Positions 23,619 to 49,400 of a stretch of DNA of 64,000 bases are shown here, piece after piece. The position numbers were made by a program, and so were the translations under genes. The stretch is taken from assembly GCA_002706335.1 (NCBI GenBank), contig PAKZ01000032.1, positions 97,466 through 161,465 of the forward strand. The letters run 5' to 3'. The notes below the pieces were generated by a model. That model did not search any database, was not told the DNA's origin, and saw only the letters and a list, made by a program, of their open reading frames with translations. The stretch's first letter is position 1, and each line of letters opens with the position of its first letter. The DNA comes from Ahrensia sp. (GTDB taxonomy: Bacteria; Pseudomonadota; Alphaproteobacteria; Rhizobiales; Rhizobiaceae).

Positions 23619-25736
23619 ATGAAAAACAATTTTCTTCGCAAGCGCGGCGTCGTACTTGCCGCGAACATGGCGTTCGGCGCGTTGCTGGCGTTTCCAGCGC
23701 TCGCGCAAAACAATTATGCGCTCGTGGTCGCCGTATCGAAATACGACAACCTTGACGAAACCCTGTGGCTCGCCGGTCCGGTGAACGACGCGAAGCTGGT
23801 GCATGAATATTTGCTCGACGGCGCTCCGATAGACTTCACCGAAGACAGGATCACCCTGCTCGCCGACGGTATTGACGGCGCTACCGCCCCTACCAACGCC
23901 CACATCCACGAAGCGTTTGCCGCGCTCGCGGAAAAGGCGGAACCCGGCGATTTCGTCTTCCTGCATTTTTCCGGCCATGGCTCGCAGTCGCCGGCCCGCG
24001 TCGAAGGGCAGGAACAGGACGGACTAGACGAACTCTTCCTGCCGTCGGACATTTCCAATTGGGACATGAGTACCGGCACGATACCGAATGCTCTTGTCGA
24101 TGATGATCTGGGCCAGATGATCAACCGGATAATCGACAAGGGTGCCAATGTCTGGGCCGTGTTCGACAGTTGCCACTCCGGCACCGTCACTCGCGCCGGC
24201 CCATCCGGCGATCCTTTGGACATCGAAAAATCGCGCAAGCTCGGCCCCGCCACACTCGGCATCCCCGAAGACGTGATGGACGCGGTTGAGCCGGTCCGCA
24301 CCCGCTCTGGGTCGCCTGCGCCGGAAGCGGCGACGATAGAAACGTCCGGAAAGGGCGAAGGCCAGTTCGTCTATTTCTACGCGGCGCAGACCAATCAGAC
24401 GACGCCGGAGATGCGCCTGCCCCAAGGCGATCCTGACCGTGTCTCACACGGCCTGTTCACCTTCACCCTGTTCGAGGCGCTGAGCCAGAACCCGGCTCTG
24501 ACCTACCGACAGCTCGGCGAAGAAATCCTGCGCCGTTACACCGCAGGCTACCGTGTCCAGCCGACGCCGCTCTTCGAGGGCGCGCTCGACAACCCGGTCT
24601 TTGGAGCCGACATCGGCCATGGCGGCCGGGTCCAGCAGTGGCCGGTCAAGCAGGAAAGCGGCAAGCGCGTCTTCTCCGGCGGCAGACTTCACGGACTATC
24701 GGTCGGAGACGAACTGTCCCTCCTGCCCGGCCCCGCGGCAAGCGATGACGAAAAGATGGCGACGATCCGCGTGACCAGCACCGACGATTTCCAGTCGGAA
24801 TTCGAAATAGTCGACGGCGGCTTCGTGATGATAGAGCCGGGCTTCTATGCCCGCAAAGCCGCCGACGAGATGAGTTTCGGCGTGACCGTCGCCATGCCGG
24901 ACCCGAAAACAATTAGCGATGACCAGCGCGAAGCCGTCCAGTCGGTTATGGAAGGCCTTCAGGCCGCCGACCGCGAAGGCCTGAGGCTCGAACTGGTTCC
25001 GGCCGAGGACCGCGCCGACATCTATCTCCAGGTGGCCAACGGATCGCTTTGGCTGGTGCCGGCCGGAGCAGAGCGCATCGAGGAAGGCACCGACAAGACG
25101 ATCTCGATTTCCTATACGACCCGCGACAGCAGCGAGACCGTGAACATCCTTGCCGAGAGCCTTGCACGCATCGCCCGCGTCGCCAATCTGCTCAAGCTCG
25201 GGGATTCCTTTTCGAGCAGCGACGGCGGGCTGAACGTAACCTATTACATACAGTCTGCCGCAACCGGAGAGCGCACACCGGTGGCTCCGCCTGCTATCCC
25301 GCGGCTGGAACCGGGCGACGAGATGTATCTGGAAGCGAAGAACACATCCAACCGCCCGCTTGATCTCAACATCCTCTATGTCGGCGTCAGCTATTCGATC
25401 GACTTCATGTATAACGGGCGCATCAATCCCGGCGAGACGCTTCGGGACGGCCTGCTCGAAATCATCGAGGGTGAGTACGGACGCGAGAGGCTGATCAGCA
25501 TAGTCACGCCTGCCGAGCCGCAGACGGCGCTCGCCGATTTCTCATGGCTGGCCCCGCCGGCAATCGGGCGGACTCGTGCCGCCGGCGCCTCTCGCGGTGG
25601 ATTCCAGGATATGCTGGCCGAGGCGGGCTTCGGCGAGAAGACACGCGCGGCCCGGCGCAAGACAAAGGATGACGACGGCTCCGGCATCGCGCAGGTAGCC
25701 CTCGACATCCTGCCGCCAGGCTCGACCGCCGAGTAA
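23619..25736 (+). CDS. Exported caspase-like cysteine protease (peptidase C14 domain) with large C-terminal beta-rich region
   Basis: Signal peptide ...LLAFPALA/QN. Caspase-fold dyad FLHFSGHG (His120, 23976-23978) and VFDSCHSG (Cys185, 24171-24173). The C-terminal 400 aa is uncharacterised and resembles the accessory domains often appended to bacterial caspases. Confidence 0.85.
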   Translation: MKNNFLRKRGVVLAANMAFGALLAFPALAQNNYALVVAVSKYDNLDETLWLAGPVNDAKLVHEYLLDGAPIDFTEDRITLLADGIDGATAPTNAHIHEAFAALAEKAEPGDFVFLHFSGHGSQSPARVEGQEQDGLDELFLPSDISNWDMSTGTIPNALVDDDLGQMINRIIDKGANVWAVFDSCHSGTVTRAGPSGDPLDIEKSRKLGPATLGIPEDVMDAVEPVRTRSGSPAPEAATIETSGKGEGQFVYFYAAQTNQTTPEMRLPQGDPDRVSHGLFTFTLFEALSQNPALTYRQLGEEILRRYTAGYRVQPTPLFEGALDNPVFGADIGHGGRVQQWPVKQESGKRVFSGGRLHGLSVGDELSLLPGPAASDDEKMATIRVTSTDDFQSEFEIVDGGFVMIEPGFYARKAADEMSFGVTVAMPDPKTISDDQREAVQSVMEGLQAADREGLRLELVPAEDRADIYLQVANGSLWLVPAGAERIEEGTDKTISISYTTRDSSETVNILAESLARIARVANLLKLGDSFSSSDGGLNVTYYIQSAATGERTPVAPPAIPRLEPGDEMYLEAKNTSNRPLDLNILYVGVSYSIDFMYNGRINPGETLRDGLLEIIEGEYGRERLISIVTPAEPQTALADFSWLAPPAIGRTRAAGASRGGFQDMLAEAGFGEKTRAARRKTKDDDGSGIAQVALDILPPGSTAE

Positions 25737-25757
25737 GGCGTCCCGGAGGTTGATCTG

Positions 25758-28586
25758 ATGAAGACGACACTCGCATCAGCAATTGCGCTATTGGCCATCG
25801 CCCTGGCTGACCCTGCCCCGGCGCAGGAGACGGAGGGCAAAGCGCCGATAGACCAGACGCTCCTCAAATCCGCCGAGAGCGGCGATCCAAGCGCGCTTTA
25901 CGATCTCGGCTGGGCCTATCTAGAGCGCAAGGAAGTGGAGGCCGCATCGACCACGTTCCTCAAGGCAGCTGATGCATTCGAAGTCTCTACTGGAGAAGAC
26001 AGTCTCAAGTGGAAAGCCGAGAGTTTTTCCGCCCTCGGCTACGCTCATATGCAGCAAGGCGCCGACGGCTACGACCAGGCGGCCGACTATTACCGCCGCG
26101 CGGTCGAGACCTACGGTCTGACGGACGGCGAGGATATGGGCGGCCTGAAGCCAGCACTCTACAATCTCGGCTGGATATATAGGGCCAAGGGCGGCGCGGA
26201 GAATCTGGAATCAGCGCGCAAATATCTGCGCATGGCACTGGACCTTTACGCGAATGCAGAAGGTGACAATCTTAAATGGAAGGGTGCCGTATTCAGCATG
26301 CTGGGCGACGCACATCTTGACTCGGCCCACTTCACCGACGCGATGACGTCCTACGATTCCGCCATGTCTATCTATGCGCAGATTGGCAACATGCCCGCTC
26401 TTGCTGCCAGCCTGGAGAGCAAGGGCATGGCACTCCAGGGCCTGTCGAAGTACGAAGCGGCAATCGCGCTTTTCGGGCAGGCCCGCCAGATCCGTATCCG
26501 CGAATTTGGCGACACGAGCCGCGAGGTTGCCGACACCTGGCTCGACGAGGGCATCAGTCTTGAAGGGCTGCATCGCTACGATGAGGCGCTCGACGCTTAC
26601 ACCGAGGCGCTCCTGCGCTACACGAAGGCTCTCGGCCCCGACGCCGCCGAAATAGGATGGGCAACCAACAATATCGGTTGGGTGCATCGCCGCCTCGAAA
26701 ATTACGAAGTCTCGAAACGCTGGTTCCTGAAAGCGGAACCGATCATTGTCCGCCATGAGGGGCGCTATTCGCGCAACGCCGGCAAGGTCGCGATCAATAT
26801 CGGCATCATCGAGCACTATCTCGGCAACCAGGATTCGGCGATCCGCTGGACCATGAAGTCGATGCCTTACATCAAGGCCAACCACGAGATCACGCTGGAG
26901 GAACAACGCTGGGCCTTCGATACATTTGCCCGCGCCTTCCGCGCGAAGGGGGATCCGAAGCGCGCGATCGCCTTCGCCAAACTCGCGGTCAATGCGCAAC
27001 AATCCATTCGCTCGGCGAACAAGTCGCTGTCGGAAGGTGAAAGCAAGGAACTGAAGGACGAATGGCGGTGGCTCTACCAGCATCTCGCCGACATGCTGAT
27101 CGAGCAAGGCCGTTTCACCGAAGCGCAAGCCGTGCTCAATATGGAAAAAGAGCAGGAAGTGTTCGAATTCCTGCGCCGCGACGCCTCGGCCGACCTTCGC
27201 GACACACGCGCCCTGCTCAATGACGCAGAACAGGACGAGGAGGTCAAGATCGCCGCCCTTTCGGAATTTCCGCTCGCCGCGGCGCGCGAGCTCGATCAAC
27301 TCATCGGAAAGATCGAGCGCGACGAGGCGACCGATGAGGATATCGAGAAGATCGATGTCCTGCAGGCGAGCATTGACCGGGCGGCTGAGAATTTCGACCA
27401 GCAGGTCGACGCCTTCCTCGCCGATGTCGAGGAGGACCGCAAACAATCTTTCGAGAGCCAGTTCGATGCCGTTGGAAGCCAGCAGGCGATCCTCGAGGAA
27501 TTCGAGCAGAAGACGGCGATCCTGCAGGTCGCAGCGATCGACAAGGCGACGCATATCTTCGTCACGATGCCCAGTGTCACGCTGCACAAACAGTCCGACG
27601 TCTCGAAGGTCGAACTGTCGCGCATGACCTTCGATGCACTGGTCGCCATCGAGGCGCGCAGCGCCGACACGACCGAGAAGCTGAAGGCGCTTTATGACGT
27701 GGTTGTCAGACCCGTTTCACAAGACCTGAAGGAGGCGGGCGTAGAGGTTGTCATGCTCAATCTCGACGGCTTCCTCCGATATCTCCCCTTCGCGGCGCTT
27801 TATGACGGCGAGCATTACTTCGTCGAGGATTACGCGGTGGCGCTCTACACGCCCTCCGTGCCGACGCAGTTTCGCCGCGGCGACCGGCTTGCCGCAAAAA
27901 GCGCCGGCTTCGGCGTTACCGCCGCGCATCCCGGCTTCTCTCCGCTGCCCGGCGTGAAGCGCGAGATCGAGCAAATCTTCGCTGGCGAGGACAACAATGG
28001 CATACTTGAGGGCCCGGCCGAATTCGATGATGCTTTTTCGGAAAAGAGCCTGCGCCTGACCCTTCTGAAAAAGCCGGAAATCCTGCATATCGCCAGCCAT
28101 TTCAACCTGATGCCGGGCCAGATCGACAACTCGTTCCTTCTCCTCGGCGATGGCGCGCATCTTCCGCTTTCGGATATCCGCAACAAGCGGGCGCTCTCTT
28201 TCAAGGGCATCGACCTCGTGACCCTCTCTGCCTGCCAGACCGCCATGGGCGGCGGTGGCGACGGGTCAGAGATCGAAGGGTTCGGAACGACGGCGCAGAT
28301 GAGCGGGGCCTCCGCAGTCATGGCGTCGCTGTGGCCTGTCGCCGATGAAGCGACAGCGAAGCTGATGGAGGATTTCTACGACAACATGATGCGCGGCGGC
28401 ATGTCGAAAGCTGACGCGCTGCGCGCCGCCCAAATAACCATGATGCGCGGCAGCGAAACACTCGCAGCCTCCGAAGGGGGCGAACGCGCCGCAATGTCGA
28501 AACAAAAACGCAAGGCCGACGCGTCAACGGGATTTTCCCATCCCTATTTCTGGTCGTCTTTCATACTGATCGGAAACTGGCTGTGA
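25758..28586 (+). CDS. Exported TPR-repeat CHAT-domain protease
   Basis: Signal peptide MKTTLASAIALLAIALADPAPA/Q. Multiple TPR-like repeats (YDLGWAYL, YNLGWIY, ALSFSMLGDA...). C-terminal CHAT motifs ILHIASHF and LVTLSACQTA, then SLWPVADEAT and HPYFWSSFILIGNW. GGAGG ribosome-binding site. 21 nt after the caspase gene. Confidence 0.85.
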   Translation: MKTTLASAIALLAIALADPAPAQETEGKAPIDQTLLKSAESGDPSALYDLGWAYLERKEVEAASTTFLKAADAFEVSTGEDSLKWKAESFSALGYAHMQQGADGYDQAADYYRRAVETYGLTDGEDMGGLKPALYNLGWIYRAKGGAENLESARKYLRMALDLYANAEGDNLKWKGAVFSMLGDAHLDSAHFTDAMTSYDSAMSIYAQIGNMPALAASLESKGMALQGLSKYEAAIALFGQARQIRIREFGDTSREVADTWLDEGISLEGLHRYDEALDAYTEALLRYTKALGPDAAEIGWATNNIGWVHRRLENYEVSKRWFLKAEPIIVRHEGRYSRNAGKVAINIGIIEHYLGNQDSAIRWTMKSMPYIKANHEITLEEQRWAFDTFARAFRAKGDPKRAIAFAKLAVNAQQSIRSANKSLSEGESKELKDEWRWLYQHLADMLIEQGRFTEAQAVLNMEKEQEVFEFLRRDASADLRDTRALLNDAEQDEEVKIAALSEFPLAAARELDQLIGKIERDEATDEDIEKIDVLQASIDRAAENFDQQVDAFLADVEEDRKQSFESQFDAVGSQQAILEEFEQKTAILQVAAIDKATHIFVTMPSVTLHKQSDVSKVELSRMTFDALVAIEARSADTTEKLKALYDVVVRPVSQDLKEAGVEVVMLNLDGFLRYLPFAALYDGEHYFVEDYAVALYTPSVPTQFRRGDRLAAKSAGFGVTAAHPGFSPLPGVKREIEQIFAGEDNNGILEGPAEFDDAFSEKSLRLTLLKKPEILHIASHFNLMPGQIDNSFLLLGDGAHLPLSDIRNKRALSFKGIDLVTLSACQTAMGGGGDGSEIEGFGTTAQMSGASAVMASLWPVADEATAKLMEDFYDNMMRGGMSKADALRAAQITMMRGSETLAASEGGERAAMSKQKRKADASTGFSHPYFWSSFILIGNWL

Positions 28587-28641
28587 CAGTTTCCGGATAC
28601 CCGCTAGAGGCAACACAATCGCAACACTGAAAGGACTGATT

Positions 28642-29691
28642 ATGAGGAAAATACTGAGCAAGATCGCCGGCGCCGCGGCGATCGCCCTTGTTTTGCAGGC
28701 GATGGCGTCGGCGGAACCGATGTGGGAGAAAAAGGAAGGGTCGCCGGACATGCCGTTCAACTTCGCGGCGAGCCCGGAAAAGGCCGCGATGCTGGAAGGC
28801 AGCTCCGAAGAAGAACGCTCTCGCGTCCTGAACGGCAAGATCGCCGCAGACGGTGCCTGGCCGTGGCAGGTCGCCCTTATGCGCGTCGACGTCGAACGCG
28901 ATCTTCTCTCGCAATTCTGCGGCGGCTCGATGATCCAGAACGACTGGGTACTGACGGCGGCCCACTGCGTGGTCGAGCAGCGCCAGGACGGCTACTACAT
29001 CATCGATCCGGCCAAGACCCGCATCATGGTCGGGACGAACCGCATTTCCAATGAGGGCGATTTCGTTGAAGTTCAGCAAATCATCGTCAACGAAAACTAC
29101 GATCCCAACGGTTTCGACAACGACATCGCGTTGATCAAGCTTGCACGCGTGCCCAACGCGAATTTCAAGACGATCACGATTCCCACGGGCGAATATGCCG
29201 ATATCCTCGAAAAGCCGAACACCGAAACGATCGTGACCGGCTGGGGTCGAACTGAAGCTGGCACGCCGTCGCGCGAACTCCGCGAGGGCCGTATCGAGAT
29301 TATCGATCGCAATATCTGCAACGCGGCCCTTCTCGCAGGCCCGATGAAGGCGGCGGCCGGCTACTTCCAGCAGGCGGCCGATGCGCTTGCCCTGTCCGGC
29401 AACGACGCCAACACGCTCTGGGATGAGATGCTGGACAGGGTTCCGGTGCCGCTCACCGAGAACATGATCTGTTCGGGCACGCCGGAAGGCCCGCGCGGCG
29501 CATGCGACGGCGACAGCGGCGGACCGCTTGTCATCGGCGTCGGCGAAGGCAAATACATACAGGCGGGTATCGTCAGCTGGGGCCTCGCCTCGACAGATGG
29601 TGTCGGTTGCAATCGCGACGCCAAATTCTCCGCCTATACCCGCACCGGCAACTATGCCGACTGGGTTCTCACGAAGCTCGGCTACAAGTAA
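28642..29691 (+). CDS. Exported chymotrypsin-fold (S1A) serine protease, apparent zymogen
   Basis: Signal peptide ...QAMASA/E. Triad LTAAHC (His108), DNDIALIKL (Asp161), GDSGGP (Ser292). SR/VLNGKIAADGAWPWQVAL resembles the R/IVGG activation junction. Gly occupies the position equivalent to trypsin Asp189. Confidence 0.9.
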   Translation: MRKILSKIAGAAAIALVLQAMASAEPMWEKKEGSPDMPFNFAASPEKAAMLEGSSEEERSRVLNGKIAADGAWPWQVALMRVDVERDLLSQFCGGSMIQNDWVLTAAHCVVEQRQDGYYIIDPAKTRIMVGTNRISNEGDFVEVQQIIVNENYDPNGFDNDIALIKLARVPNANFKTITIPTGEYADILEKPNTETIVTGWGRTEAGTPSRELREGRIEIIDRNICNAALLAGPMKAAAGYFQQAADALALSGNDANTLWDEMLDRVPVPLTENMICSGTPEGPRGACDGDSGGPLVIGVGEGKYIQAGIVSWGLASTDGVGCNRDAKFSAYTRTGNYADWVLTKLGYK

Positions 29692-29717
29692 GCTGGCTCT
29701 TCGCGAAACCGGTTTTG

Positions 29718-29746
29718 AAGGCGGCGGATTTTCCGCCGCTTTTTTT
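29718..29746 (+). terminator. Rho-independent terminator after the S1 protease gene
   Basis: aaggcggcgga-ttt-tccgccgc followed by TTTTTTT. Confidence 0.8.
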
Positions 29747-29749
29747 ACG

Positions 29750-31195
29750 TCAGTCCGGCGAAATACGGCGTTTGCCCTTGGACGAAATCCCCTCATAGGA
29801 GCGCAGGAAATTGCGGAAGACCGGGTGCTGGCGCAACGCCAGGCGACCTGCCTCAATCGACAGATCAACCTGCTCGCCCGGCAGTTTGAGCCGCGTGGGA
29901 ACCTGGTTCAGTTTCGCCTCCATCTGGCTATCGAGCTGGTCGAAGCGCAGTTCGGCGACATAGAGTTTCAGGTTGCGGCAATTCCATTTGCGCGGATCGC
30001 CGCCGAATTTCCTGACCTCCGCACTGCTCAGCGAGCAGCGATAGGCAATCAGATCCTGCTGCCAGCTTTCCATCGCGGCCTTGAACGCGTCGAAGCCCTC
30101 GCGCGTCGCCGACGCCATTGCCGTATCCGCGATCGCCGACACAAGTTCGAGACCGCCCGGACCGGCGACCTCGTTCGCCCAGTCGCCATCGAGTTCGCGG
30201 CCCGCATTCGAGACGATGAAAACCATGCGTTCCAGCGCCACCGCCTCTTCCTCGCTGAAAGGAGCGTGTCGGGTCTGCGCGCGACCCCGCGCGATCGAGA
30301 TACCGGTCAGGCCGAAATTGTCGGTCACTGCGCCATCGAGCAGCTTGACGTAGCGCATCTTCTCCGGATCCCGGTAATTGCGCAGCGCCCGCGCATAGGC
30401 GCGCAGCGAGGCCGAAGCCTCAGTATTGTAGGCCGCCGTGGTCAGCCATGCCGGCGGCTCGTAACTGCAGCGCGGCCCGTAGGCTTCGAGAACGATCGGC
30501 GAGAAGACGATGGGCACGGCCGCCGACGCCGCGACAGCCTCGGCGACCGGAAGCCTGTTCAGGTCGCTGCAAAGGGCGCGGAAAGTCTCCGGCTCGAAGG
30601 TGAACGGCGTCCGGTTGTAGATGTCCGACGCGTTGATCCAGGTGGTGATCTGTTTGTTACGATAGAGGTCTGCGAACGTCGCGCCCTTGAACAGGTTCTC
30701 GTCCAGCCAGCGCCCGAACCCTTCCCGGCTGTTGACGCCGCCGCTCGCCGCACGAAGCAGATTGACCGGATCGAGCTTCGAAGTGCGCATATATTCCTCG
30801 CCGTTCCTGACGAGGAAATGCTGTTTGAAGTCGGAAAAACCGCGCGCTCCCTTGAGACCGAAATAGGCTGCGGTCACCGATCCGCCGGATACTCCGGAAA
30901 GGAACCGTATTTCATCGAAAGCCGATATACCTTTCTTTCCGGGGATCGCGGTCTCCTGCATTTCGCTCAATATTCCGTAGGCGAAGGCCGCGGCGCGCGT
31001 GCCGCCGCCTGAAAAAGCCAGCGCCACAAAATCGCTGTCAGCGCTCATGCCGTCGTCTTGCGCCGTCAACCCCGGCGCTTGCTCGACCTGGATTTCCGAG
31101 AAAGAGTTCAGCGTATCATTGACCGAGACACAGCCTGCCAGCATGGCAGCTGCGGTCAAGCCGGCAATGCGGCGCAAAATCGTCGATCGCGACAT
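29750..31195 (-). CDS. Patatin-like phospholipase, lipoprotein
   Basis: Lipobox AAAMLAGC. Oxyanion FSGGGTRAAAF. Nucleophile elbow GVSGG (Ser codon 30887-30889). Asp motif DGAVTDNFG. Start taken at the ATG 31193-31195 (the track ORF starts 10 codons earlier). Confidence 0.85.
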   Translation of the reverse strand: MSRSTILRRIAGLTAAAMLAGCVSVNDTLNSFSEIQVEQAPGLTAQDDGMSADSDFVALAFSGGGTRAAAFAYGILSEMQETAIPGKKGISAFDEIRFLSGVSGGSVTAAYFGLKGARGFSDFKQHFLVRNGEEYMRTSKLDPVNLLRAASGGVNSREGFGRWLDENLFKGATFADLYRNKQITTWINASDIYNRTPFTFEPETFRALCSDLNRLPVAEAVAASAAVPIVFSPIVLEAYGPRCSYEPPAWLTTAAYNTEASASLRAYARALRNYRDPEKMRYVKLLDGAVTDNFGLTGISIARGRAQTRHAPFSEEEAVALERMVFIVSNAGRELDGDWANEVAGPGGLELVSAIADTAMASATREGFDAFKAAMESWQQDLIAYRCSLSSAEVRKFGGDPRKWNCRNLKLYVAELRFDQLDSQMEAKLNQVPTRLKLPGEQVDLSIEAGRLALRQHPVFRNFLRSYEGISSKGKRRISPD

Positions 31196-31339: not shown

Positions 31340-32011
31340 ATGAAAATTTCCTTGCGCGCGGTTGGCGTTTCCGCGTTGATCCTTGCGAGCGCCGTCGCAA
31401 CAACGAGCTACGGCCAGTCGGCCGCGGAAGACCCGCAGGCGGCCGCACTGAAACTGATCCGGATGTCGCGTACATTACACGACCGGGCAATCGAGACCTC
31501 CGATCCAGTCCTCATGCTTTCAGCGGCAAGGTTGCGCAAGGATTCCGGCATGAAAGCTGGCGCGCTTGGCACGCTGGAAAATAGCGGCGAAGACGCTGGC
31601 GACATTTCGGGGGAGACATTCAGCTGGGAACGCTGGCTTGAAGAAGCCGTGCGGCTTTCGGGCGGCAGCGATGTGATCGCCGGGCTCGCCACCGATATCC
31701 GGACATCCGGATCCAAGGGCCTCGCAGGCCAGGCAGTCTATACCGAAGGCCGCCTCGCGGCGCATTCCAGCCATAGATACAGCGATCTGAATTTCGTCGG
31801 CGGCGAGTTCGCCGAAGTCTATTCCGAAGGTCTCGGCAAGGCGGATATCGATCTGTTCGTGCGCGACTCGCGCGGCGCGATCGTCTGCTCACAGACGGAT
31901 TCGAGCAATATCAACCAATGCGGCTGGACGCCGGGCGCGACCGGTCCCTTCGAGGTCACGCTGGAAAACAAGAGCGATTTCGCAGACACGTACGCGCTGA
32001 CCACAAACTGA
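31340..32011 (+). CDS. Small secreted protein: helical N-domain plus PPC-like (pre-peptidase C-terminal type) beta-sandwich
   Basis: Signal peptide. The N-domain is paralogous to ORF 35755-36147. The C-terminal pattern YSDLNFVGGEFAEVY...GKADIDLFVRDSRGAIVCSQ...GPFEVTLEN...YALT fits the DxDLYxxD-type PPC signature. Confidence 0.65.
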   Translation: MKISLRAVGVSALILASAVATTSYGQSAAEDPQAAALKLIRMSRTLHDRAIETSDPVLMLSAARLRKDSGMKAGALGTLENSGEDAGDISGETFSWERWLEEAVRLSGGSDVIAGLATDIRTSGSKGLAGQAVYTEGRLAAHSSHRYSDLNFVGGEFAEVYSEGLGKADIDLFVRDSRGAIVCSQTDSSNINQCGWTPGATGPFEVTLENKSDFADTYALTTN

Positions 32012-32027
32012 TCAGCACCTGACAGCG

Positions 32028-32495: not shown

Positions 32496-32519
32496 AGCGT
32501 ATCTATACCTCTCATTGGT

Positions 32520-36205: not shown

Positions 36206-36240
36206 GCCGCATCGGCTCAGCCGGTGCGGCTTTCTTCTCT
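36206..36240 (+). terminator. Stem-loop plus T-rich tract between convergent genes
   Basis: gccgca-t-cggc-tca-gccg-g-tgcggc followed by TTTCTTCTCT. Confidence 0.55.
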
Positions 36241-36569: not shown

Positions 36570-36660
36570 ATGTCCTCGCAATCGCCCCGAACGATGCCCG
36601 AGGCCTCATCTTAAGCCGTTTTCCGCGTGGGAAAAGGCAACGGCTGGCCGGACCATCTTT

Positions 36661-39605: not shown

Positions 39606-39617
39606 GGTCCCGTGCGA

Positions 39618-42600: not shown

Positions 42601-44081
42601 CCGGCCCGATCGAGGCTGGCGATACGTTTCGTCGCCTCCGACGCGGAGATGGCGATGATCGACTCTGGTGAAATGTCGGATAGCCCCATCTCTTCGTCAT
42701 AGCCCACATTCACGAATCCGATTTGTCCGAGATTGGTCCCGACCGCCGCGTAGACCCCGAGAACATCCATCGCCGTGAAATTCTGTTCGCTCGAAAACCT
42801 CAGAAAATGGCCGAACCCTTCGAAGCCATCCTTCTGGATGATGAAGCCCTTGATCGAGAGATCGTCATCGGCCTGTAGCAGCGCCGAGGAACTGGAGGAA
42901 CCGAAGATGCGGCCGCCGAAGTCCGAATGAATGACCTTCGTCACCTTCTGGCTTCTGACATTCCAGATCCCGAGCGTCTGCCGGCTCTTGCCAGCCCCGC
43001 CCGGCGCCGGCTGCTCCAGGAGGATCAAAGACCCGCTCGATGGGACGAAAGCGATATCGGTGACCCGGTCGCCGCCGGGCGCCATGAATGACGGGTTGAC
43101 CACCTCGAATGTCGAGCGATCGACAGGCACCGACGCATGACGATACTGCGTGTCGAATTGCCAGGCGACATGCAGCAACGAAGTGCTTCCATCGGCCCGC
43201 TGCATGGGAGACGGCTTGTCGGAGGAAATTTCGCGGCTGACACGCACGGCGAGCCCGGTTTCGACATCGACATCGGCGGTCCATCGCACGGAGAGCGGCA
43301 CGCTGCCCTGAGCGCCGGCCTCGATGGAGAACCGCGCAATTTCCCGCCCCCAGCGCGTGCCGACATCCTTCAGGGTGATCGTTCGCCAGGTCGTGTTGTC
43401 GCCAAGGACATCGTTGAAGGATGGTCCCGGATCGACCGCCTCCCCGACAATGAAGATCTTGCCGTCAAGATAGCGCCCGAACCGCGCATAGAACGGCGCC
43501 CCGTCCAGAAACACCAACGCCTTTGCGGCCTCGTCCTCCGGAAGACCGGTTTCGACAAACGTCCCCTCCGCGTCCTTCTCGAAATAACGAAGCGATCGTT
43601 CGCCCGTGTCCCCGTCTTCGATCCTGTATCGGCCGGTCCTTACCGGATAGAACGGGTCCATCGTCTCGCTTTCAGGGCTCGATCCCCGCGAAACGCTTTG
43701 CCGGTTGACGTCGATGTCCGTAACGAGCGCGCCGGCTTCGCTTCTCTGAACAGAACCGTATCGCGCGACCGCGGTCGTCACATCGGGAGCGGCGGAGAAA
43801 TCGGCTTCGGTCTTCGCGTTGATGAAGCGCCGAACGGCCCGGAGATAGATCACGACCTCATCGTTTTCGGCGTCACCGACATAGCGGAAGCTAACGGACG
43901 ATCCGCTACTCCCGTCAGCGGACGCAGCCGGCACATCGGCCGCGAAGACGCAAAGCGCCACGACCGCGACGGCAATCGACTTTGCCGTCAGGCTACGAAA
44001 GACGTCCGCAAGGGAAAGGATCGGGGAGAATACCTGCATCGCTTGCCGGAACTCAGCATCCTCCGAAAGCATAGGTGGCAT
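39618..44081 (-). CDS. Exported WD40/beta-propeller repeat protein with C-terminal caspase-like (C14) protease domain
   Basis: Leader ...SIAVAVVALCVFAADVPAASA/D. WD40-type repeats (for example VTAMEFDASGRMLGIGTDSGSVVLEDL..., HDAAVGSLSWNGSGLVTRGREGVIRIWE). Caspase dyad LFFFAGHG and VMLIDACHSG. The start is ambiguous (44081, 44072 or 44039). Confidence 0.85.
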   Translation of the reverse strand: MPPMLSEDAEFRQAMQVFSPILSLADVFRSLTAKSIAVAVVALCVFAADVPAASADGSSGSSVSFRYVGDAENDEVVIYLRAVRRFINAKTEADFSAAPDVTTAVARYGSVQRSEAGALVTDIDVNRQSVSRGSSPESETMDPFYPVRTGRYRIEDGDTGERSLRYFEKDAEGTFVETGLPEDEAAKALVFLDGAPFYARFGRYLDGKIFIVGEAVDPGPSFNDVLGDNTTWRTITLKDVGTRWGREIARFSIEAGAQGSVPLSVRWTADVDVETGLAVRVSREISSDKPSPMQRADGSTSLLHVAWQFDTQYRHASVPVDRSTFEVVNPSFMAPGGDRVTDIAFVPSSGSLILLEQPAPGGAGKSRQTLGIWNVRSQKVTKVIHSDFGGRIFGSSSSSALLQADDDLSIKGFIIQKDGFEGFGHFLRFSSEQNFTAMDVLGVYAAVGTNLGQIGFVNVGYDEEMGLSDISPESIIAISASEATKRIASLDRAGVLRVDALDFPDRCGTTDFLSAYCKDGRISLGDRLVEKKLGSTQCLEVSSQSLRLSPDGAMLAWAEPDATPDCRPSGRITIETLESGLRRTVEGTAFAFSKDSASLVTDAGVYGLGAGDPQVEAFDRAIDGAKKLIVADDAALAFVLAGGDSVFMVDLKTRSVLGDLVAETGYEDVSAILARAVADKRLWSVTANGILIAEQPETNRTEYQDLLALAGVNAADARLIDADIRWQGRDILLAYTVSGSDGDRTHLARMTGRGWRHLGDFEAPSLPLSRALAVDDGQVFLLASDGLVVLDGEGVALRKLSADIVPAEITDVKAGRGPWQGRPIFIRNTDPEGSLQTVSLAIGRIDGDAVTLERSFPLHAPDRWNFTSDTPLAISPDGRYAAVANMRAPDNGRWSENVSLVFIVDLADGKRTAEIFPGWQGNVTAMEFDASGRMLGIGTDSGSVVLEDLQSGAVRQTLQAHDAAVGSLSWNGSGLVTRGREGVIRIWETADIDLDYATPVYGDRLYDIAFGMPANDQMVAAIFDPLYGARSKNFEGSVVLTSDGYYAGDKNRLRRLSFIDTWGGSVDLFEADIFRNRPDIALSRAGLITPDRELLLARLHEKRLLETGSGRPSPMTLSAAAELTVVQETDAITGSDSAEFTLSSDGQAGLRTVELRNNGIVLERLGISAASDGQALHVPLEPGLNRIRFTETDPRGVQRTLFRTTIRRAPPEGIAPPKLYVFAVGVSDYSDDALDLTYAAKDARDIGAYFGGTADAVVHVATDGESTADLVDEARRFFAQARPQDKTLFFFAGHGLLDDDYGYYLGSHETDLDDLANSAIPFRRLESIFDDTNSLHRVMLIDACHSGVIDPSLKTDKRVAFTTGAVVARDARGAVPLARRKNTVSLEDSYEVLRANFLDTKSRSGANIISASGGFQFAFETPDVANGLFTHVLLDGLRSRKADSNGDDAVELSELFRYVSANVLELSGGRQMPSVRSEPQYSQFTLQ

Positions 44082-44736
44082 GAACGCCGATGAGCGCCAA
44101 CAGGTCGCGATCCGTCTTGCCTGTCGGTTCGACGCCGATTTCGCTCTGGAACAGCTTCACGGCTTCCGCTGTTTCCGCCGTGTAGTACCAGTCCGGCGCA
44201 TCGGCGAAATAGCCGCCCACCAGCAGATACTTCTCCAGCCGTTTGACGGCGGGATAGAGATCGCCGGGTTCCATCAGAAGCGGTTGGGCAAGCTTGTCGG
44301 AGGCTTGGCATACCGCATCAGGCGCCGGTTTCAGGAAGAAGCTGCCGTCGATCACGGCGCCATCCGCTTCCATGGCACCAAGTGCGGTAACGACGCTTTC
44401 CATGCGGACCGATTCCACGCGCCGGTTCGAAAACTCGGCGAGCAATCCATCGCGCACCCGCATCAGCGTGATGCGCCCGCCGTCGCATTCGAGCGAACAC
44501 GTGACCGACCCGTTTTCGGGAAATTCGCAGGAGTCTGTGTAGGGCGCGTAAGGATTGACGGTCTTCGCATAGGTGATCGACCCGCTTCGGTCGATGGTCA
44601 TTATGCCGACGCCGGAATCGGGCGTTGCTTTCTCCAGCGTGTAGCAGCTGGCCGGTTCCGCTCCGAACGCGGGGCCGCTCACAAGCGCAACCGAAATGGT
44701 GGCCGTGGCAAGCCCCGAGGCGATACGAGACATCAT
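44053..44736 (-). CDS. Secreted protein with C-terminal peptidoglycan-binding-like domain
   Basis: Signal peptide ...VALVSGPAFG/A. The C-terminal VKRLEKYLLVGGYF...TAETAEAVKLFQSEIGVEPTGKTDRDLLALI fits the PG_binding_1 helix pattern. The ATG overlaps the upstream CHAT gene stop. Confidence 0.65.
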   Translation of the reverse strand: MMSRIASGLATATISVALVSGPAFGAEPASCYTLEKATPDSGVGIMTIDRSGSITYAKTVNPYAPYTDSCEFPENGSVTCSLECDGGRITLMRVRDGLLAEFSNRRVESVRMESVVTALGAMEADGAVIDGSFFLKPAPDAVCQASDKLAQPLLMEPGDLYPAVKRLEKYLLVGGYFADAPDWYYTAETAEAVKLFQSEIGVEPTGKTDRDLLALIGVHATYAFGGC

Positions 44737-47700
44737 GATGTGCCCTCCAGTACGACAATCGGTGCCCAGTAATAGGGATGTCTCTCGTCCGGTACGGTCA
44801 TGCCGGCGCCCTTCTGTTTGGATTTGGCGGAACGGAAGTCGGTGCTCGCCCCCTTGTGCTCGCCGCGCAGGAACTGCCGCTGCACCTGTGCGAGCGCGCT
44901 GGCGACGGACAGGCCCTTGTCGATCTGATGCTTGTAGAACTCCTGCATGAAGACTGCCGTCGAACGGTCGTTGATCGGCCAGAGCGTGGCGACGATTTCA
45001 AGCGCGCCTTTCTGCTGCGCGACGGCGGCAAAGCTCTCCAGTTCGCGGCCGTCAGCCTCCCGCCGGCCATACGCGGTCTCGCAGGCCGACAGGGTCAGCA
45101 CACCGACCTCGGCGAAATCGAGATCCATCCCGAAACTGTCCTTGATGTCGGCGACGGTCAGCCGGTCACCATCGCCAAGCAGCAGGTAGGAATCGTCCTC
45201 CGAACTGCCGAGGATGAAATGCGAGGCGAGATGAACGATGCCAAGCGTCGGCTCGTCCGGCTCCCCGAATATCAAAGCGCTCGCCATCGTATCGCGGGTG
45301 AAATCCGCGTCGGCATGGATCGTGCCGTCGACCACCCCCTGCGCGTCCTCGCCGCCCTCGCGCACAATCGCGGAGAGTTCGTCGGCAACGCCGGGAAGCG
45401 GCGATAGACCGTACCAGGAATTGGTCGTTCCGAACCCCGCGATACGGTCAGGCGATGCCCCGCCCCCTCCGACCGACCGCGTTTCGGTCGCATGCGTCAG
45501 GTCGAAATCCTCGACCAGATAGTGCTCGCCATCATGGAGCGCGGCGAAGGGCACGTAACGCAGCCGGCGATCCAGCGACAAGATCAGCGTTTGCGTACCG
45601 GCATCCTCCAGTTCGCGCATCAACTCCCCTGGGAGAACCAGATCGTGCAAGGCCTTGGAGGCGGGCTTCGGATCGGTGCCCGGATTCTGCAGCGCCTTTC
45701 GCAAGGATTCGATTCCGGCGTTCAGCCGCTCTTCCGTGAACGGCGCGCCCTCCCATTCGGTCCAGCTGAACACCCTTTCGGAGACCGCGGTCGTAAGGAT
45801 TGCGCCGACCCGGTCCGGCAGGACGACATACTGGATCGCCGCCGCCTTTCCGTCAAAGGCGCGGCGCAAATGCGCCCGTACCGAGCTGACATTGCGCGCC
45901 AGATCCTCGACGACAGTGCTGTGCACGGCGTCAGAGGCCGCGATCAGCCCTTCCAGTTCCTTTTCCATCTCTTCGCGCGAAGCGACGAGCGTGTCAGTCA
46001 AGGAGGCAAGTTCGGTCTCTTCCGCGCCGGTCAACTCGCCGCTCTTGCGTTGCAACAGCAATTCGCGCCGCCGGATTTTCAAGGCTGTCACGGTCGGACG
46101 AACCGCATCGATCTTGGCGGACAGCGCCTCTTCTGCGGGGTTCATCTCCAGCGTGGCAAAGGCATCGCCCGCGAAATCCGTGTCGCGACCGAGAAATTCG
46201 AAGGTCTCGAAGGATTTGAGCATGCCGAGAACGGTCGACGCCTCGGCCGGCCGGTCCTGGCTGATGAAGAGATCGGCCAGCCAGCGATAGTGATCGGAGA
46301 TCGTGTCGCGGAAACACATTTGCAGATGTTCCGGCAGCCCGGAAATGCGCCGACGCACATCCTGCAGTTCATTGACGGCGCGCTTCGCCAGCGTCAGCGC
46401 CATCGCCGCCTCGTCGAGCGCGTAAAGGCGCTCGCTCGCCTTGGAAAGCGTACAGACCCGCCCGAGCGATGCCTCGATATTGCCGTTCCAGACAGCGGTC
46501 ATGGCGTGGCGCGCCATGTCGGCGGTCAGCGCGACCAGTTCCAGCTCGACGGCGCGCAGTCTGTTGCCGGCGTCCGCTTCCAGCTTCGCCAGTTGCCGGG
46601 CGGACAGCGCCAACCCCATACTGTTGCCCGAGAGACCTTCGGCCAAGGCAAAGCGTTCGCGAGCTGCACCGATGTCGACCGAGACATCCGGTCTCGGCTC
46701 GTCAGCGGTCGACGCCAGTTCGAGCAGGGCGCGTGCCGCCTCGTCTCCCCGTTGGGCGAGCATCTGAAGAACACGTTCGAGCGGATCCCACGCCTCATCA
46801 GGTCCGCCCTCTAGGTGGCGGGCAAGTGCACGGCGGAACGCGGCTCCACGCGACGCGCCGACCTCGCCATCTGCGGGAAGGGCACGCACCAGGCGTAGCG
46901 ACTCCAGCGCCCCGGCATAGTCGCCGTAATAGGAGAGGACATCCACCCAGCCGGCGATGGCATAGGCGGGACGCGTCCTAGTCGACTCGTTATAGGGGGG
47001 CAGCCGCCCCTGTTCGCGCAGTTCGGCCTCCTCGGACGCTGCCGCCTGCGCCAACCATTCATATGCATAGGCGACGATATCCGGTTCGCCCCCCCCAAGA
47101 GCCGCAACCCGATGGAACTCGACGCAATCGGCGAAGCCCTGTACGGCAGGCTGGCAGATTTCGTCCGCCGCCGCCTTGAATGCCTCGGTTCCCGGCGCGT
47201 AGCGATAAAGGCCCAGCAGCGTGCCCTTCGTCAGTCGGGCAAGCTCGTTTTCGTCCGCCTGCAATTCCGGCTGCGCCAGCAGGATACGTGTCAGCTTGCC
47301 ATTCGCGTCCTCGTCATCCGCAAGGCGATACCACGCCGCGGCCTTACCGAGATCGACGGTCGGTCCGCCATCAAGCCCCGCAAAGGCGTCGCCGAGAGTA
47401 ATCGCGAACTCGACATAGGCCGCCCGCGTGGTCCAGTCCTGCTCCTCGCCGGCGGACGCCCCGATGATCTTGCCGGCATCGTCGAGCAGAGCGCGCCCCG
47501 GCCCTTCGGAAAAGAACTCGCTGCCATTCAGCAGGCGCCCCTGGAACACGCCTGCCGCGCCGTTGGTCAGACGGCCGATTTCACCGTCGAGGCGGAGACC
47601 AGCCCGGTAATAGGCAAGCGCCTTGTCCCAGTCGCGCGGCACATGCTTGCCGGTCTCGTGGAACCGTGCCAGCGCGAGACTTGCGGCCGTCTGCCCCAGC

Positions 47701-49400
47701 TTCGCCGCGCCGCGGTAATACTTCAGCGACGCCGCAATATTCTGCGGCACGCCGTAGCCCTGCTCGTTCATCTGAGCGAGCCTCAGAAGAGCGAAGCTGC
47801 TGCCCTTGTCCGCCGCCGCCTGGAAGTGCTGCAGCGCGAGCGGCAGGTCTTTGCGTCCGTCGACGAACCCTTCCAGCAATAGCGTCGCAACAATCGCATT
47901 GGCCTGATGGCTGCCGTCGGCACGCAGTTGCGCGGAAACGGCCGGGTCGTCCGCCACCGCCTGCGCAAGCCCGACCGCCCTGTCGGCAAGGCTGATCGGG
48001 ACGCTGAAGTCGAGTGCGATCTGCTCGACAGTCGCCTTGTTGCCCTCCCCGGCCCACCACGGCTCGATATAGGTGTTCGCACCCAGCCCGCCTTCCGCCT
48101 CGGGAAAAAGCGATCCGTCGTCCCTTTCGCCCTCAGACTGAAGCAGGCCGGCCAGCGCCTCGCCCATGCCTTCCGGCAGTGTATCGGGAAGAACGCCGGC
48201 CACCGCAGCGCGCACCAGGGCGACATCGCCGCCGATCCAGCGTTCGGCGCGCTCATTGCCGAGGCCAACCAGATAGATGCCGACATCCGGCCGGCGCGGC
48301 AAGCCTTCGCCGTTGTAATAGTCGAGGCCGAGCCGGCTCAGCGCGGTCTTCCAGCGGCCTTCCTCATCGTCTTCGGGTATACCAGTCGCGGACCAAACTG
48401 CCTTGCGGGTCGCCGAAGCGATCGCCTCGATCGAAGCCAGATCCCCCGGCCAATCGGGAAGCGCTGCAAACACGGTTTTCAGAAACAGATAGATTTGATC
48501 GGGACCACTTTTACCGTCGTTTCCGTCCATCGCCGCCAATTGCCCTGAGCACGCGCCGAAGATCTCAGCGAGGCCGGCTTTCAGACGATCCAAATCGATA
48601 GTGTCCTCCGCACTCGCCAGCGCCGCAATTTGCCATCCGACCGGCGCCCAGACGGTTTCCGGAGCCTTGCCCGCCTGACAGGCCGCAAGCGTACGCAGCA
48701 ATATCTGCCCATCGAACGGTTTCGCCCGCGCCAGATCCGCAGCGCATAACGGGCCGCCCTGCCCGGCCGCTGCCAGCGCAAGAACATCGCCCGGCATCGG
48801 AAGCGTGCCCTCGTCCTTGGGTGCAAGGTCGGCCCGATCCGCCGCGCGGTTCCACGCCGTGACGCTACCCTTTCCGAAAAGCCCGTCAGCTTCGCCTGCT
48901 TCGCAGCCATGCAAATTGAGCATCGCCTGCGCCAAGCGCGATTGCGGCTGGTAATAGGCCCGAACCTCGACCTGCTTGCGCGTAATCTCGCCGAGCCCTT
49001 CGGATTCGATAACATCGATGAGCGGGCACACACCGTCGCCATACCGTTCGATATCGGCGCGAAGCCTCTGCAGCGCCGCCGCATTGGCCGCAAGCATGCG
49101 GTTGGCAAAGCCTAGCCCATCCTGCGCCTGTCCGATGGTCGAGCCAGACATCAGATAGTCGACAACATTCACGCCGGCCCGCCCGGCGAAATCGCCCACG
49201 CTGGATGTCGAATAGCTCGCCGCCACTGCGATGATCGTGTCGAGGTCGTAACTGGCGGCTTGGCCATAGTCGCCGGGACAGACAGCCGATTCCAGTGCCG
49301 CCCTCCAGTCTCCGACAGCATCCTGCGCTTGTCCCCGGAGCGTCGCGGCCCCCAAGACGAGAACCGCCACAGCGACGATGCCGACCAAACGCAAGAGCAT
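44733..49400 (-). CDS. Exported giant PG-binding / Sel1-TPR repeat CHAT-domain protease (third copy)
   Basis: Leader MLLRLVGIVAVAVLVLGAATLRGQA/Q. PG-binding-like LAQAMLNLHGCEAGEADGLFGKGSVTAWNRA. Sel1 repeats (AADKGSSFALLRLAQMNEQGYGVPQNIAASLKYYRGAAKLG...). CHAT motifs IVHLASHF and VLTLSACETA, then TLWPINDRST and HPYYWAPIVVLEG. Confidence 0.85.
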   Translation of the reverse strand: MLLRLVGIVAVAVLVLGAATLRGQAQDAVGDWRAALESAVCPGDYGQAASYDLDTIIAVAASYSTSSVGDFAGRAGVNVVDYLMSGSTIGQAQDGLGFANRMLAANAAALQRLRADIERYGDGVCPLIDVIESEGLGEITRKQVEVRAYYQPQSRLAQAMLNLHGCEAGEADGLFGKGSVTAWNRAADRADLAPKDEGTLPMPGDVLALAAAGQGGPLCAADLARAKPFDGQILLRTLAACQAGKAPETVWAPVGWQIAALASAEDTIDLDRLKAGLAEIFGACSGQLAAMDGNDGKSGPDQIYLFLKTVFAALPDWPGDLASIEAIASATRKAVWSATGIPEDDEEGRWKTALSRLGLDYYNGEGLPRRPDVGIYLVGLGNERAERWIGGDVALVRAAVAGVLPDTLPEGMGEALAGLLQSEGERDDGSLFPEAEGGLGANTYIEPWWAGEGNKATVEQIALDFSVPISLADRAVGLAQAVADDPAVSAQLRADGSHQANAIVATLLLEGFVDGRKDLPLALQHFQAAADKGSSFALLRLAQMNEQGYGVPQNIAASLKYYRGAAKLGQTAASLALARFHETGKHVPRDWDKALAYYRAGLRLDGEIGRLTNGAAGVFQGRLLNGSEFFSEGPGRALLDDAGKIIGASAGEEQDWTTRAAYVEFAITLGDAFAGLDGGPTVDLGKAAAWYRLADDEDANGKLTRILLAQPELQADENELARLTKGTLLGLYRYAPGTEAFKAAADEICQPAVQGFADCVEFHRVAALGGGEPDIVAYAYEWLAQAAASEEAELREQGRLPPYNESTRTRPAYAIAGWVDVLSYYGDYAGALESLRLVRALPADGEVGASRGAAFRRALARHLEGGPDEAWDPLERVLQMLAQRGDEAARALLELASTADEPRPDVSVDIGAARERFALAEGLSGNSMGLALSARQLAKLEADAGNRLRAVELELVALTADMARHAMTAVWNGNIEASLGRVCTLSKASERLYALDEAAMALTLAKRAVNELQDVRRRISGLPEHLQMCFRDTISDHYRWLADLFISQDRPAEASTVLGMLKSFETFEFLGRDTDFAGDAFATLEMNPAEEALSAKIDAVRPTVTALKIRRRELLLQRKSGELTGAEETELASLTDTLVASREEMEKELEGLIAASDAVHSTVVEDLARNVSSVRAHLRRAFDGKAAAIQYVVLPDRVGAILTTAVSERVFSWTEWEGAPFTEERLNAGIESLRKALQNPGTDPKPASKALHDLVLPGELMRELEDAGTQTLILSLDRRLRYVPFAALHDGEHYLVEDFDLTHATETRSVGGGGASPDRIAGFGTTNSWYGLSPLPGVADELSAIVREGGEDAQGVVDGTIHADADFTRDTMASALIFGEPDEPTLGIVHLASHFILGSSEDDSYLLLGDGDRLTVADIKDSFGMDLDFAEVGVLTLSACETAYGRREADGRELESFAAVAQQKGALEIVATLWPINDRSTAVFMQEFYKHQIDKGLSVASALAQVQRQFLRGEHKGASTDFRSAKSKQKGAGMTVPDERHPYYWAPIVVLEGTS

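Follow-up and report, generated by a model that had tools for sequence, protein, structure and literature searches.

The DNA considered here is a window of 64,000 nucleotides (the term denotes the whole stretch analysed) on contig PAKZ01000032.1 of Ahrensia sp., in which positions 23619-49400 hold seven enzymes that an earlier sequence-only reading had taken for a single island encoding a candidate extracytoplasmic proteolytic cascade or envelope-defence system. All evidence reported in the following is computational. In the window, which has a G + C content of 61%, real genes were told from the many overlapping open reading frames (ORFs) by their third-position G + C content (GC3), and the reading frames of the enzymes were preferred over the overlapping ones because of their high GC3 (0.72-0.82). 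The first five genes of the interval code for casp705, a C14 peptidase of 705 amino acids (23619-25736, forward strand; Peptidase_C14, E 1e-17), a TPR-CHAT protein of 942 amino acids (25758-28586, forward; CHAT, E 2e-58; TPR_12, E 6e-35), an S1 protease (28642-29691, forward; Trypsin, E 9e-48), a patatin lipoprotein of 481 amino acids when read from MSRSTILRR (29750-31195, reverse strand; Patatin, E 1e-13) and sp223, an exported protein of 223 amino acids that has no Pfam match and is a conserved partner (31340-32011, forward). A terminator-like hairpin followed by a T-run (29720-29737, forward) closes the operon of the caspase, CHAT and S1 genes. These five genes are a core cluster that is conserved across marine alphaproteobacteria.

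The other three enzymes of the interval are a second exported TPR-CHAT protein of about 1001-1006 amino acids (32520-35540, reverse; CHAT, E 1e-49), a WD40-caspase of 1487 amino acids (39618-44081, reverse; Peptidase_C14, E 8e-13, with a weak partial WD40 match) and an exported Sel1-CHAT protein of 1555 amino acids (44733-49400, reverse; CHAT, E 1e-47; Sel1, E 1e-11). All enzyme families score well above the Pfam gathering thresholds, so that the seven enzymes of the sequence-only reading could be confirmed by family, with every catalytic motif quoted there at its expected position; the dyads and triads, whose possible degeneracy had been raised as an objection, have intact catalytic residues.

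By sequence as well as by its structural model, casp705 is metacaspase-like. It scores 64.8 bits against Peptidase_C14 (cut-off 21.4; 49.1 bits for the 1487-residue protein), and its signal peptide, H120 (in HFSGHG) and C185 (in DSCHSG) are invariant in 16 homologues. Its best PDB matches, by sequence and by fold, are Yca1 (E 5e-22 in the sequence comparison), AtMC4 and AtMC9, together with GSU0716 and MALT1; in Foldseek the order is AtMC4, AtMC9, GSU0716 and Yca1 (E 6e-12 to 8e-10), followed by MALT1, for a model with a predicted local distance difference test score (pLDDT) of 80-92 in the p20 core. With the metacaspases and orthocaspases (C14B) casp705 has in common the His-Cys dyad, an acidic stretch (DGLDELFLPxD, which aligns with DGMDDVIYPVD of Yca1) and an Arg-bearing linker between p20- and p10-like parts. 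Cutting behind Arg or Lys is typical of metacaspases and paracaspases, and Ca2+ is required by many of the former; to judge from its DSCHSG motif and its Yca1-like acidic stretch, casp705 may have both properties as well. Its disordered linkers (residues 186-246 and 645-686) carry invariant Arg residues (R192, R206, R653 and R676) that are, judging from alignment and model, candidate self-processing sites. In contrast to metacaspases, casp705 has a cleavable signal peptide, about 370 additional amino acids forming three beta-rich C-terminal domains and a fixed place in a cluster with S1, patatin and sp223 genes, and the characterised metacaspases, unlike casp705, are cytoplasmic. For the C-terminal domains, Foldseek with the whole model returned caspase-domain matches only, and a permissive Pfam search gave none. 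A survey of prokaryotic caspase homologues from 2012 goes no further than the remark that an N-terminal helix that might be a signal peptide, or a peptidoglycan-binding domain, is present in some bacterial metacaspases (PMC3501461).

The gene of the 942-residue TPR-CHAT protein, which has a signal-like N-terminus, HIASH at residue 777 and LSACQT at residue 823, follows the caspase gene after a gap of 21 base pairs (bp), and the same position is taken by its counterparts in Oricola and Oceaniradius. It occupies the slot of a second clan-CD peptidase, in which Rhodobacterales have a caspase paralogue. The three CHAT proteins of the interval score 198, 170 and 163 bits (cut-off 24).

The S1 protein (Trypsin, 163 bits) has TAAHC, DIALIKL and GDSGGP, with the triad positions invariant across the aligned orthologues, and consists of a signal peptide, a propeptide of about 35 amino acids and a catalytic domain beginning after an activation bond at R61|V62. 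Its best alignments are with proteases of animal cascades, such as kallikrein, TMPRSS (TMPRSS11D), MASP (MASP-1), tryptase and plasminogen. In the alignments with TMPRSS11D, MASP-1, kallikrein and tryptase, V62 falls on residue 1-2 of the mature catalytic chain, so that R61|V62 is identified as an activation bond of the Ile16 type. The residue preceding this bond (P1) is Arg or Lys in all 50 genome and all 7 metagenome orthologues, and the motif [R/K]|(V/I)(I/V/L)(G/N)G is present in 57/57. Wherever residue 189 could be read in the orthologues, it is Thr or Gly, without a single Asp, whereas in the same scan 60 of 71 more distant bacterial S1A relatives (28-38% identity) have kept Asp189. To judge from these alignments, the S1 protease seems to have kept a basic activation site while losing the usual means of cutting it, and since P1 is Arg or Lys yet residue 189 is not Asp, it probably needs an activator from outside. 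These zymogen hallmarks, which call for a different activating protease, lend weight to the proteolytic cascade that had been proposed for the interval, in which the order of activation can be proposed by inference only.

The patatin lipoprotein (52 bits, cut-off 27.7) has GGGTR, GVSGG and DGAVTDN; GxSxG and DG[A/G] are present in 49/49 orthologues, and the Ser-Asp dyad is intact.

The linkage of these genes was assessed with casp705 as anchor, which has more than 900 full-length homologues (40-69% identity). In a scan with one genome per species 279 relatives were found, of which the best 80 loci were taken (designated here by L and a number); by their record titles, all are from Rhodobacterales, marine Hyphomicrobiales or unclassified Alpha- or Pseudomonadota, save one metagenome-assembled genome (MAG) labelled Flavobacteriaceae. 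When the proteins of the window were compared by tblastn with the 56 non-redundant loci having full 10-kb flanks around the casp705 homologue, sp223 was found within 10 kb in 53, the S1 protease in 52, a second clan-CD peptidase (either a caspase paralogue of about 28% identity or a CHAT protein) in 54 and the patatin lipoprotein in 43. An unbiased clustering of all neighbouring ORFs in addition recovered an HtrA/Do (DegP-type) protease with PDZ domains (47/56), a HAMP-HisKA kinase (49/56) and an OmpR-type regulator (49/56), while the next commonest unrelated neighbour family is present at only 19 of 81 loci. The linkage of caspase, CHAT, S1 and patatin genes is therefore far above chance across two alphaproteobacterial orders. 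The co-localisation elsewhere that the sequence-only reading called for is thus found for the core (52-54 of 56 loci; patatin 43 of 56) but not for the interval as a whole. A metagenome scan anchored on the S1 protease agrees: it gave four S1 orthologues whose contigs are 9 kb or longer, each of which adjoins caspase genes, and about a dozen more distant S1 genes likewise lie near C14 or CHAT genes.

In Thalassovita, the genes for degP, response regulator, histidine kinase, patatin, second caspase and S1 follow one another in this order on the same strand, 0-51 bp apart, and the pair of sp223 and first caspase is divergent from them. This gene order is repeated in dozens of genera and is stereotyped in Rhodobacterales; of the lineages outside Rhodobacterales, Ahrensia, L009 and L018 likewise have the two-component system and DegP next to the cluster. 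The kinase, the regulator and the DegP-type protease reach no NCBIfam equivalog cut-off, the nearest models of kinase and regulator being of the CusS/CopS, CreC and BaeS types. The intergenic regions of degP and sp223 contain a palindrome, (T)CACATGAC-N6-GTCATG(TGA), that is, CACATGAC-N6-GTCATGTG, often followed by TTTACAGG. It is present in about 19 of 32 Rhodobacterales loci (reference L038:9119-9275, between the two divergent operons) and may be a binding site of a regulator.

The Flavobacteriaceae case mentioned above, L018 (JBFWXZ010000040.1), is a contig of that MAG bearing a complete cluster of alphaproteobacterial type with two caspases, sp223, sp155 (another small exported protein of the interval), patatin, S1, DegP, kinase and regulator, and probably reflects mis-binning rather than a transfer between phyla.

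With respect to the compartment, the export signals claimed for the seven enzymes and for the small proteins at 31340, 32028, 35755, 38614 and 44053 are borne out in that each starts with a basic n-region and a hydrophobic core, followed by an AxA-type site, the lipobox of the patatin being LAGC, and that homologues conserve these leaders: they are kept in 16/16 caspase homologues and also in those of sp223 and of the caspase paralogue, and the lipobox is present in at least 43 of 49 patatin orthologues. Taken together, no component lacks a conserved leader, and export is further supported by the invariant Cys pair of sp223, by the PG_binding_1 domain of one accessory protein and by the apparent operon with a protease of the DegP type, a periplasmic family. 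Going by these leaders, the core enzymes would act outside the cytoplasm, most likely in the periplasm or at the inner face of the outer membrane.

The fifth member of the core, sp223, consists of a helical N-domain and a C-terminal beta-jelly-roll in an AlphaFold2 (AF2) model from a 12-sequence alignment (pLDDT 71); the jelly-roll resembles the C-domain of Tk-SP and the collagen-binding domain of collagenase. C183 and C194 are invariant, [K/R]126-G127 lies in an exposed inter-domain loop, and the protein ends in TN. In Rhodobacterales its gene as a rule immediately precedes the caspase gene, with the two abutting or overlapping, which suggests that sp223 and the caspase form a complex. In a profile search, 1241 cluster representatives reached E <= 1e-3 and 405 reached E <= 1e-10; the 150 best that were listed are, with few exceptions, stand-alone proteins with a length of about 200-250 amino acids, and no Pfam or NCBIfam model matches this family. 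Many loci of Rhodobacterales have a second sp223-like gene beyond the S1 gene.

The core set thus comprises casp705, sp223, a second clan-CD peptidase, the S1A zymogen and the patatin lipoprotein. With a probability of roughly 0.5 we consider this set to be one regulated, stress-regulated proteolytic network in the cell envelope, a reading that starts from what was computed directly, i.e., the domain identities, the intact catalytic residues, the conserved export signals, the linkage of the genes and the way in which zymogen site and pocket residue are combined in S1. An envelope-sensing two-component system of the OmpR type, which in most relatives is part of the same apparent operon as the DegP-type protease, would switch the genes on. 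An Arg/Lys-specific clan-CD peptidase would then become active, perhaps with Ca2+ and by self-cleavage at a conserved linker Arg, and would cut the S1 propeptide at Arg/Lys|Val-Ile/Leu-Gly/Asn-Gly, thereby freeing a new N-terminus. Enzymes of the chymotrypsin fold need such a new N-terminus for activity, and since there is no acidic residue in its specificity pocket the S1 protease could probably not perform this step itself. Active S1 together with the TPR- and Sel1-scaffolded CHAT peptidases would cleave downstream targets in the envelope, and the patatin lipoprotein would remodel or attack membrane lipid. In this scheme the compartment, the order of activation, the dependence on Ca2+, the role of sp223, the regulation through the two-component system and the purpose served are inferred; this purpose could be remodelling of the envelope under stress, controlled lysis, the release of vesicles, defence, or an attack on substrates outside the cell.

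Several points weigh against a network of this kind. The evidence for export consists of a heuristic (n-region, hydrophobic core, AxA site) together with conservation in homologues, and the proteins may instead be released to the medium or into vesicles. The P1 specificity of the C14 and CHAT enzymes is carried over from their relatives; an S1A protease lacking Asp189 could accept basic residues via other residues of the pocket, and DegP or an unlinked protease could be the activator of S1. The patatin is not obligatory, since it is missing from 13 of 56 loci. In the window and in its closest relatives (Oricola) no two-component system and no DegP-type protease adjoin the cluster, and of eight matches in the window to the palindrome CATGAC-N6-GTCATG with two mismatches, none lies in the promoter regions of the cluster. 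Finally, confidence in the AF2 models is moderate, with pLDDT values of 65 and 71.

A more far-reaching version, to which we can give only about half the credence, is that alphaproteobacteria possess a genuine zymogen cascade outside the cytoplasm, comparable to clotting or complement in animals, by which the envelope would be broken or remodelled. After induction by the two-component system, a Ca2+-dependent exported metacaspase restrained by sp223 would initiate it, the S1A zymogen would propagate it and the TPR/Sel1-CHAT proteins and the patatin would execute it, with programmed lysis, vesicle release or defence as the outcome; additional CHAT and caspase modules would then represent diversified branches of input and output.

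Somewhat less probable again is that the hydrolases form a regulated set, secreted or displayed at the surface, with which the bacteria would feed or attack hosts such as algae, and that the two-component system would sense the substrate or host. That all components carry export signals would fit, as would the habitats of the bacteria, which are marine or aquatic and according to record titles in many cases associated with algae or particles; moreover, the jelly-roll of sp223 is like accessory domains of secreted proteases and collagen-binding domains, and zymogen propeptides are common in secreted digestive proteases. However, metacaspase-like and CHAT peptidases are, as is generally known, usually processors of narrow specificity, the TPR and Sel1 scaffolds, the peptidoglycan-binding partner and the operon with a DegP-type protease point to the periplasm, and the conserved neighbourhood contains no secretion-system genes.

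Independent action of each protease, without any cascade, in an adaptor-guided housekeeping proteolysis of envelope-biogenesis or cell-wall enzymes seems unlikely to us, although periplasmic precedents for TPR- or Sel1-guided proteases are familiar (NlpI-Prc, LbcA-CtpA and BepA), a PG_binding_1 partner appears to be translationally coupled to the Sel1-CHAT protein and the cluster is linked to a DegP-type protease. Such a role leaves unexplained the basic activation site of S1 combined with its lost Asp189, and also the joint travel of two clan-CD peptidases, S1 and sp223 (52-54/56).

The view that phage attack triggers the network and that the patatin then kills the cell or seals its envelope, i.e., anti-phage defence or abortive infection at the level of the envelope, is slightly less likely still. 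Caspase, CHAT and trypsin-type proteases with a phospholipase are typical of cytoplasmic conflict systems, PADLOC profiles for caspase and phospholipase effectors give weak matches, the WD40-caspase resembles the EACC1-associated caspase at a sub-threshold score and the several variable paralogous modules in the genome recall diversified immune loci. Yet no known system was matched in PADLOC-DB 2.0, where only the generic 'caspase' profile and weak isolated matches were obtained, the cluster comes with neither an NTPase nor a sensor or nuclease, its neighbours include no gene for defence or mobile elements, and the order of the core genes is kept across many genera of two orders, with the DegP-type protease and the two-component system and at native G + C content. 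Because of this stereotyped synteny and the operon apparently shared with DegP-type protease and two-component system, the cluster is better understood as a vertically kept physiological module of envelope stress or homeostasis. For the defence part of the sequence-only reading there is accordingly no positive evidence, PADLOC giving only a generic caspase profile, whereas its statement that NTPases, gasdermins, nucleases, TIR and CRISPR components are lacking holds for Pfam and PADLOC in the ORFs tested.

That exported hydrolase genes without any functional connection have clustered by chance or history can hardly be maintained, for although the window stacks independent modules, gene order differs between the orders and patatin and CHAT are dispensable in some lineages, a co-occurrence of 93-96% persists across rearranged gene orders, two taxonomic orders and metagenome contigs, as against at most 19/81 for other families.

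Three known cytoplasmic systems were considered by name and rejected. A type III-E Craspase would require partners that are absent, as neither gRAMP/Cas7-11 nor a CRISPR array nor Csx30/31 was found by Pfam or PADLOC in the interval, and the proteins carry signal peptides; no gasdermin match was obtained with Pfam or PADLOC in any ORF tested, which speaks against a bacterial gasdermin operon; and against a STAND/NTPase conflict system stand the interval, in which no NTPase domain was found, and a score of 85 bits for the EACC1-type caspase where 140 are needed.

The network in the envelope favoured here shares features with several characterised systems. With the zymogen cascades of animal S1A proteases (coagulation, complement MASPs, kallikrein, TMPRSS) the S1 protease has in common the architecture of a propeptide followed by [R/K]|(I/V)(I/V)GG and an apparent dependence on an upstream protease; it differs in its bacterial host, its presumed clan-CD activator, Thr or Gly at residue 189 and the lack of CUB or kringle modules. 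Envelope-stress regulons such as CpxAR-DegP of E. coli and MprAB-PepD of mycobacteria likewise combine an OmpR-type regulator, a HAMP kinase and an HtrA protease, as do 47-49 of the 56 relatives; however, kinase and regulator fall short of the equivalog cut-offs here, and all three genes are absent from the 64-kb window itself and from the Oricola loci. To our knowledge, no known regulon of this type includes metacaspase, CHAT or patatin enzymes. The joining of a TPR or Sel1 array to a protease is reminiscent, as an analogy only, of the periplasmic adaptor-protease pairs NlpI-Prc, LbcA-CtpA and BepA, with a link to peptidoglycan via PG227, the peptidoglycan-binding protein of the interval; these pairs use S41 and M48 proteases instead of CHAT. 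Cytoplasmic conflict modules with a protease and an effector (type III-E, gasdermin operons, caspase/trypsin-EACC1) show the same protease families, TPR scaffolds and logic of release by cleavage, but here all components are exported and there is no gRAMP, gasdermin, NTPase or EACC1 partner; two papers (PMC7159879 and PMC12642450) are without mention of signal peptides or patatin, and one of them mentions the periplasm only in another context.

In agreement with the sequence-only reading, no functional description of such a network was found by full-text searches or in the 2012 survey, a 2020 eLife paper on conflict systems and a 2025 preprint on modules of proteases and effectors. The protein families are known; what seems to be new is their exported and co-inherited assembly together with a zymogen that apparently depends on an activator. 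Bacterial caspase homologues and CHAT proteins have mostly been discussed as cytoplasmic enzymes of cell death or immunity, exported ones having been noted in passing without a role. The gene set is conserved in culturable marine bacteria (Shimia, Thalassovita, Pseudosulfitobacter, Fuscovulum and Oricola) and is testable, with the concrete biochemical prediction that a clan-CD peptidase cuts the S1 propeptide at Arg/Lys|Val. If this should prove true, zymogen cascades of several tiers would not be an animal invention, bacterial envelope-stress biology would gain a new layer, and the unnamed sp223 family with its approximately 1200 cluster representatives as well as the exported TPR-CHAT proteins would be given a function.

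In contrast to the core, the 26-kb interval, claimed to be a single island, is not conserved as one; modules that have been inherited separately lie side by side in it. Most closely related are two genomes of Oricola (caspase 67-69% identical, S1 and patatin 81%), whose loci hold caspase, TPR-CHAT, S1, patatin, sp223 and sp155, with sp130, zn108, tm328, tm159, u229 and u316 nearby, while the 1006-residue CHAT protein, the WD40-caspase and the pair of Sel1-CHAT and PG227 are absent from both. Because Oricola carries the conserved module, here called module A (approximately 22.2-38.1 kb, with the widely conserved core), without the 1006-residue CHAT, the WD40-caspase and the Sel1-CHAT protein, the interval cannot be regarded as one unit: it stacks module A, an inserted second TPR-CHAT gene and a rare module of Sel1-CHAT and peptidoglycan-binding protein with an added WD40-caspase. 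The second TPR-CHAT gene, the WD40-caspase and the pair of Sel1-CHAT and PG227 are lineage-specific additions on the same theme and not parts of one machine.

The second TPR-CHAT protein, with FATHG at residue 857 and LSACNT at residue 908, is an insertion relative to Oricola, and related signal-bearing CHAT genes are found near the cluster in several Rhodobacterales. The Sel1-CHAT protein has HLASH at residue 1390 and LSACET at residue 1437. It is 33% identical to the 942-residue TPR-CHAT protein over about 550 C-terminal residues, reaching well upstream of the Pfam CHAT domain, and this extension beyond the CHAT domain points to a larger conserved module with interchangeable N-terminal repeat arrays. 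The WD40-caspase consists of an N-terminal hydrophobic segment, a long region without assignment, a partial WD40 propeller and the C-terminal C14 domain (AGHG at residue 1292, DACHSG at residue 1342), and the NCBIfam model caspase_w_EACC1 scores 85 bits, below its cut-off of 140.

PG227, an exported peptidoglycan-binding protein of 227 amino acids (44053-44736, reverse; PG_binding_1, E 1e-8), carries the only such domain that could be found, two having been claimed; neither Pfam at E <= 5 nor phmmer with the PG227 domain yielded a second one. It has only 16 homologue clusters among 5.8 billion proteins. In L086 and L087 a homologue directly follows a Sel1-CHAT gene, and no WD40-caspase was found next to it in either locus; since the pair occurs there without the WD40-caspase, the two are separable. 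In the window, the Sel1-CHAT and PG227 genes overlap by 4 bases and the PG227 and WD40-caspase genes by 29, and these overlaps suggest that the three might be translationally coupled. Transposase genes are located nearby in L087 and L088.

Among the smaller genes of module A and its surroundings, u316 (22229-23179, reverse; GC3 0.73), which codes for a multi-pass membrane protein of 316 amino acids, is divergent from the caspase gene; it adjoins the casp705 homologue in Oricola and L014-L017 (6 of 56 loci) and is a lineage-restricted neighbour. The small exported protein sp155 (32028-32495, reverse) has a signal-like N-terminus and homologues beside the cluster in Oricola and L018. The exported sp130 (35755-36147, forward) is paralogous to the helical N-domain of sp223 but stands alone (BLASTP: 28% identity over 125 amino acids, E 8e-6) and occurs in 6 of 56 loci; a terminator-like hairpin lies near it (36206-36230). 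It is followed by zn108 (36255-36581, reverse), a Cys/His-rich protein of 108 amino acids without a signal peptide, which is also found beside the cluster in Oricola and whose membership in the system is uncertain, and by two integral membrane proteins, tm159 (36661-37140, reverse) and tm328 (37152-38138, reverse), with GC3 values of 0.79-0.82. Homologues of tm328 directly follow the S1 gene in L009, L011, L014-L017, L065 and L089, and the protein has four helices, apparently in two repeated halves, each with a transmembrane helix, a domain of about 100 amino acids and a further helix. A permissive Pfam search gave nothing for sp223, sp155, tm328 and u316, and zn108 and tm159 have no Pfam match.

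The Cys-rich exported protein sp133 (38614-39015, forward) and the membrane-anchored d196 (39015-39605, forward), which has a weak match to DUF4760, had been taken as a mere block between modules. In L097 (4247-9933, on a metagenome contig with 70% G + C), however, homologues of both are again present, flanked by a casp705-like gene on one side and an S1 gene on the other, and a d196-like gene is found beside S1 and caspase genes in L118 (8089-13471).

As to the borders of the interval, its G + C content of 0.60-0.65 is like that of the left flank and the window has no tRNA gene, as had been stated from the sequence. A mobile island was rejected on the grounds that neither a tRNA nor a mobility gene turned up in the ORFs tested, that the G + C content is native and that the relatives are syntenic. 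To the right of the Sel1-CHAT gene the G + C content drops to 0.56-0.58 (49000-58000), in a region with a gene for an alpha/beta hydrolase (49593-50525) and a flippase-type gene of the Polysacc_synt family (51063-52460), which may be a surface-polysaccharide locus of different origin. At the other end of the window, the ORF at 5438-6514 (reverse) has a start that is like the twin-arginine leader of the small subunit of a [NiFe]-hydrogenase, and this leader suggests that a hydrogenase cluster might be located there.

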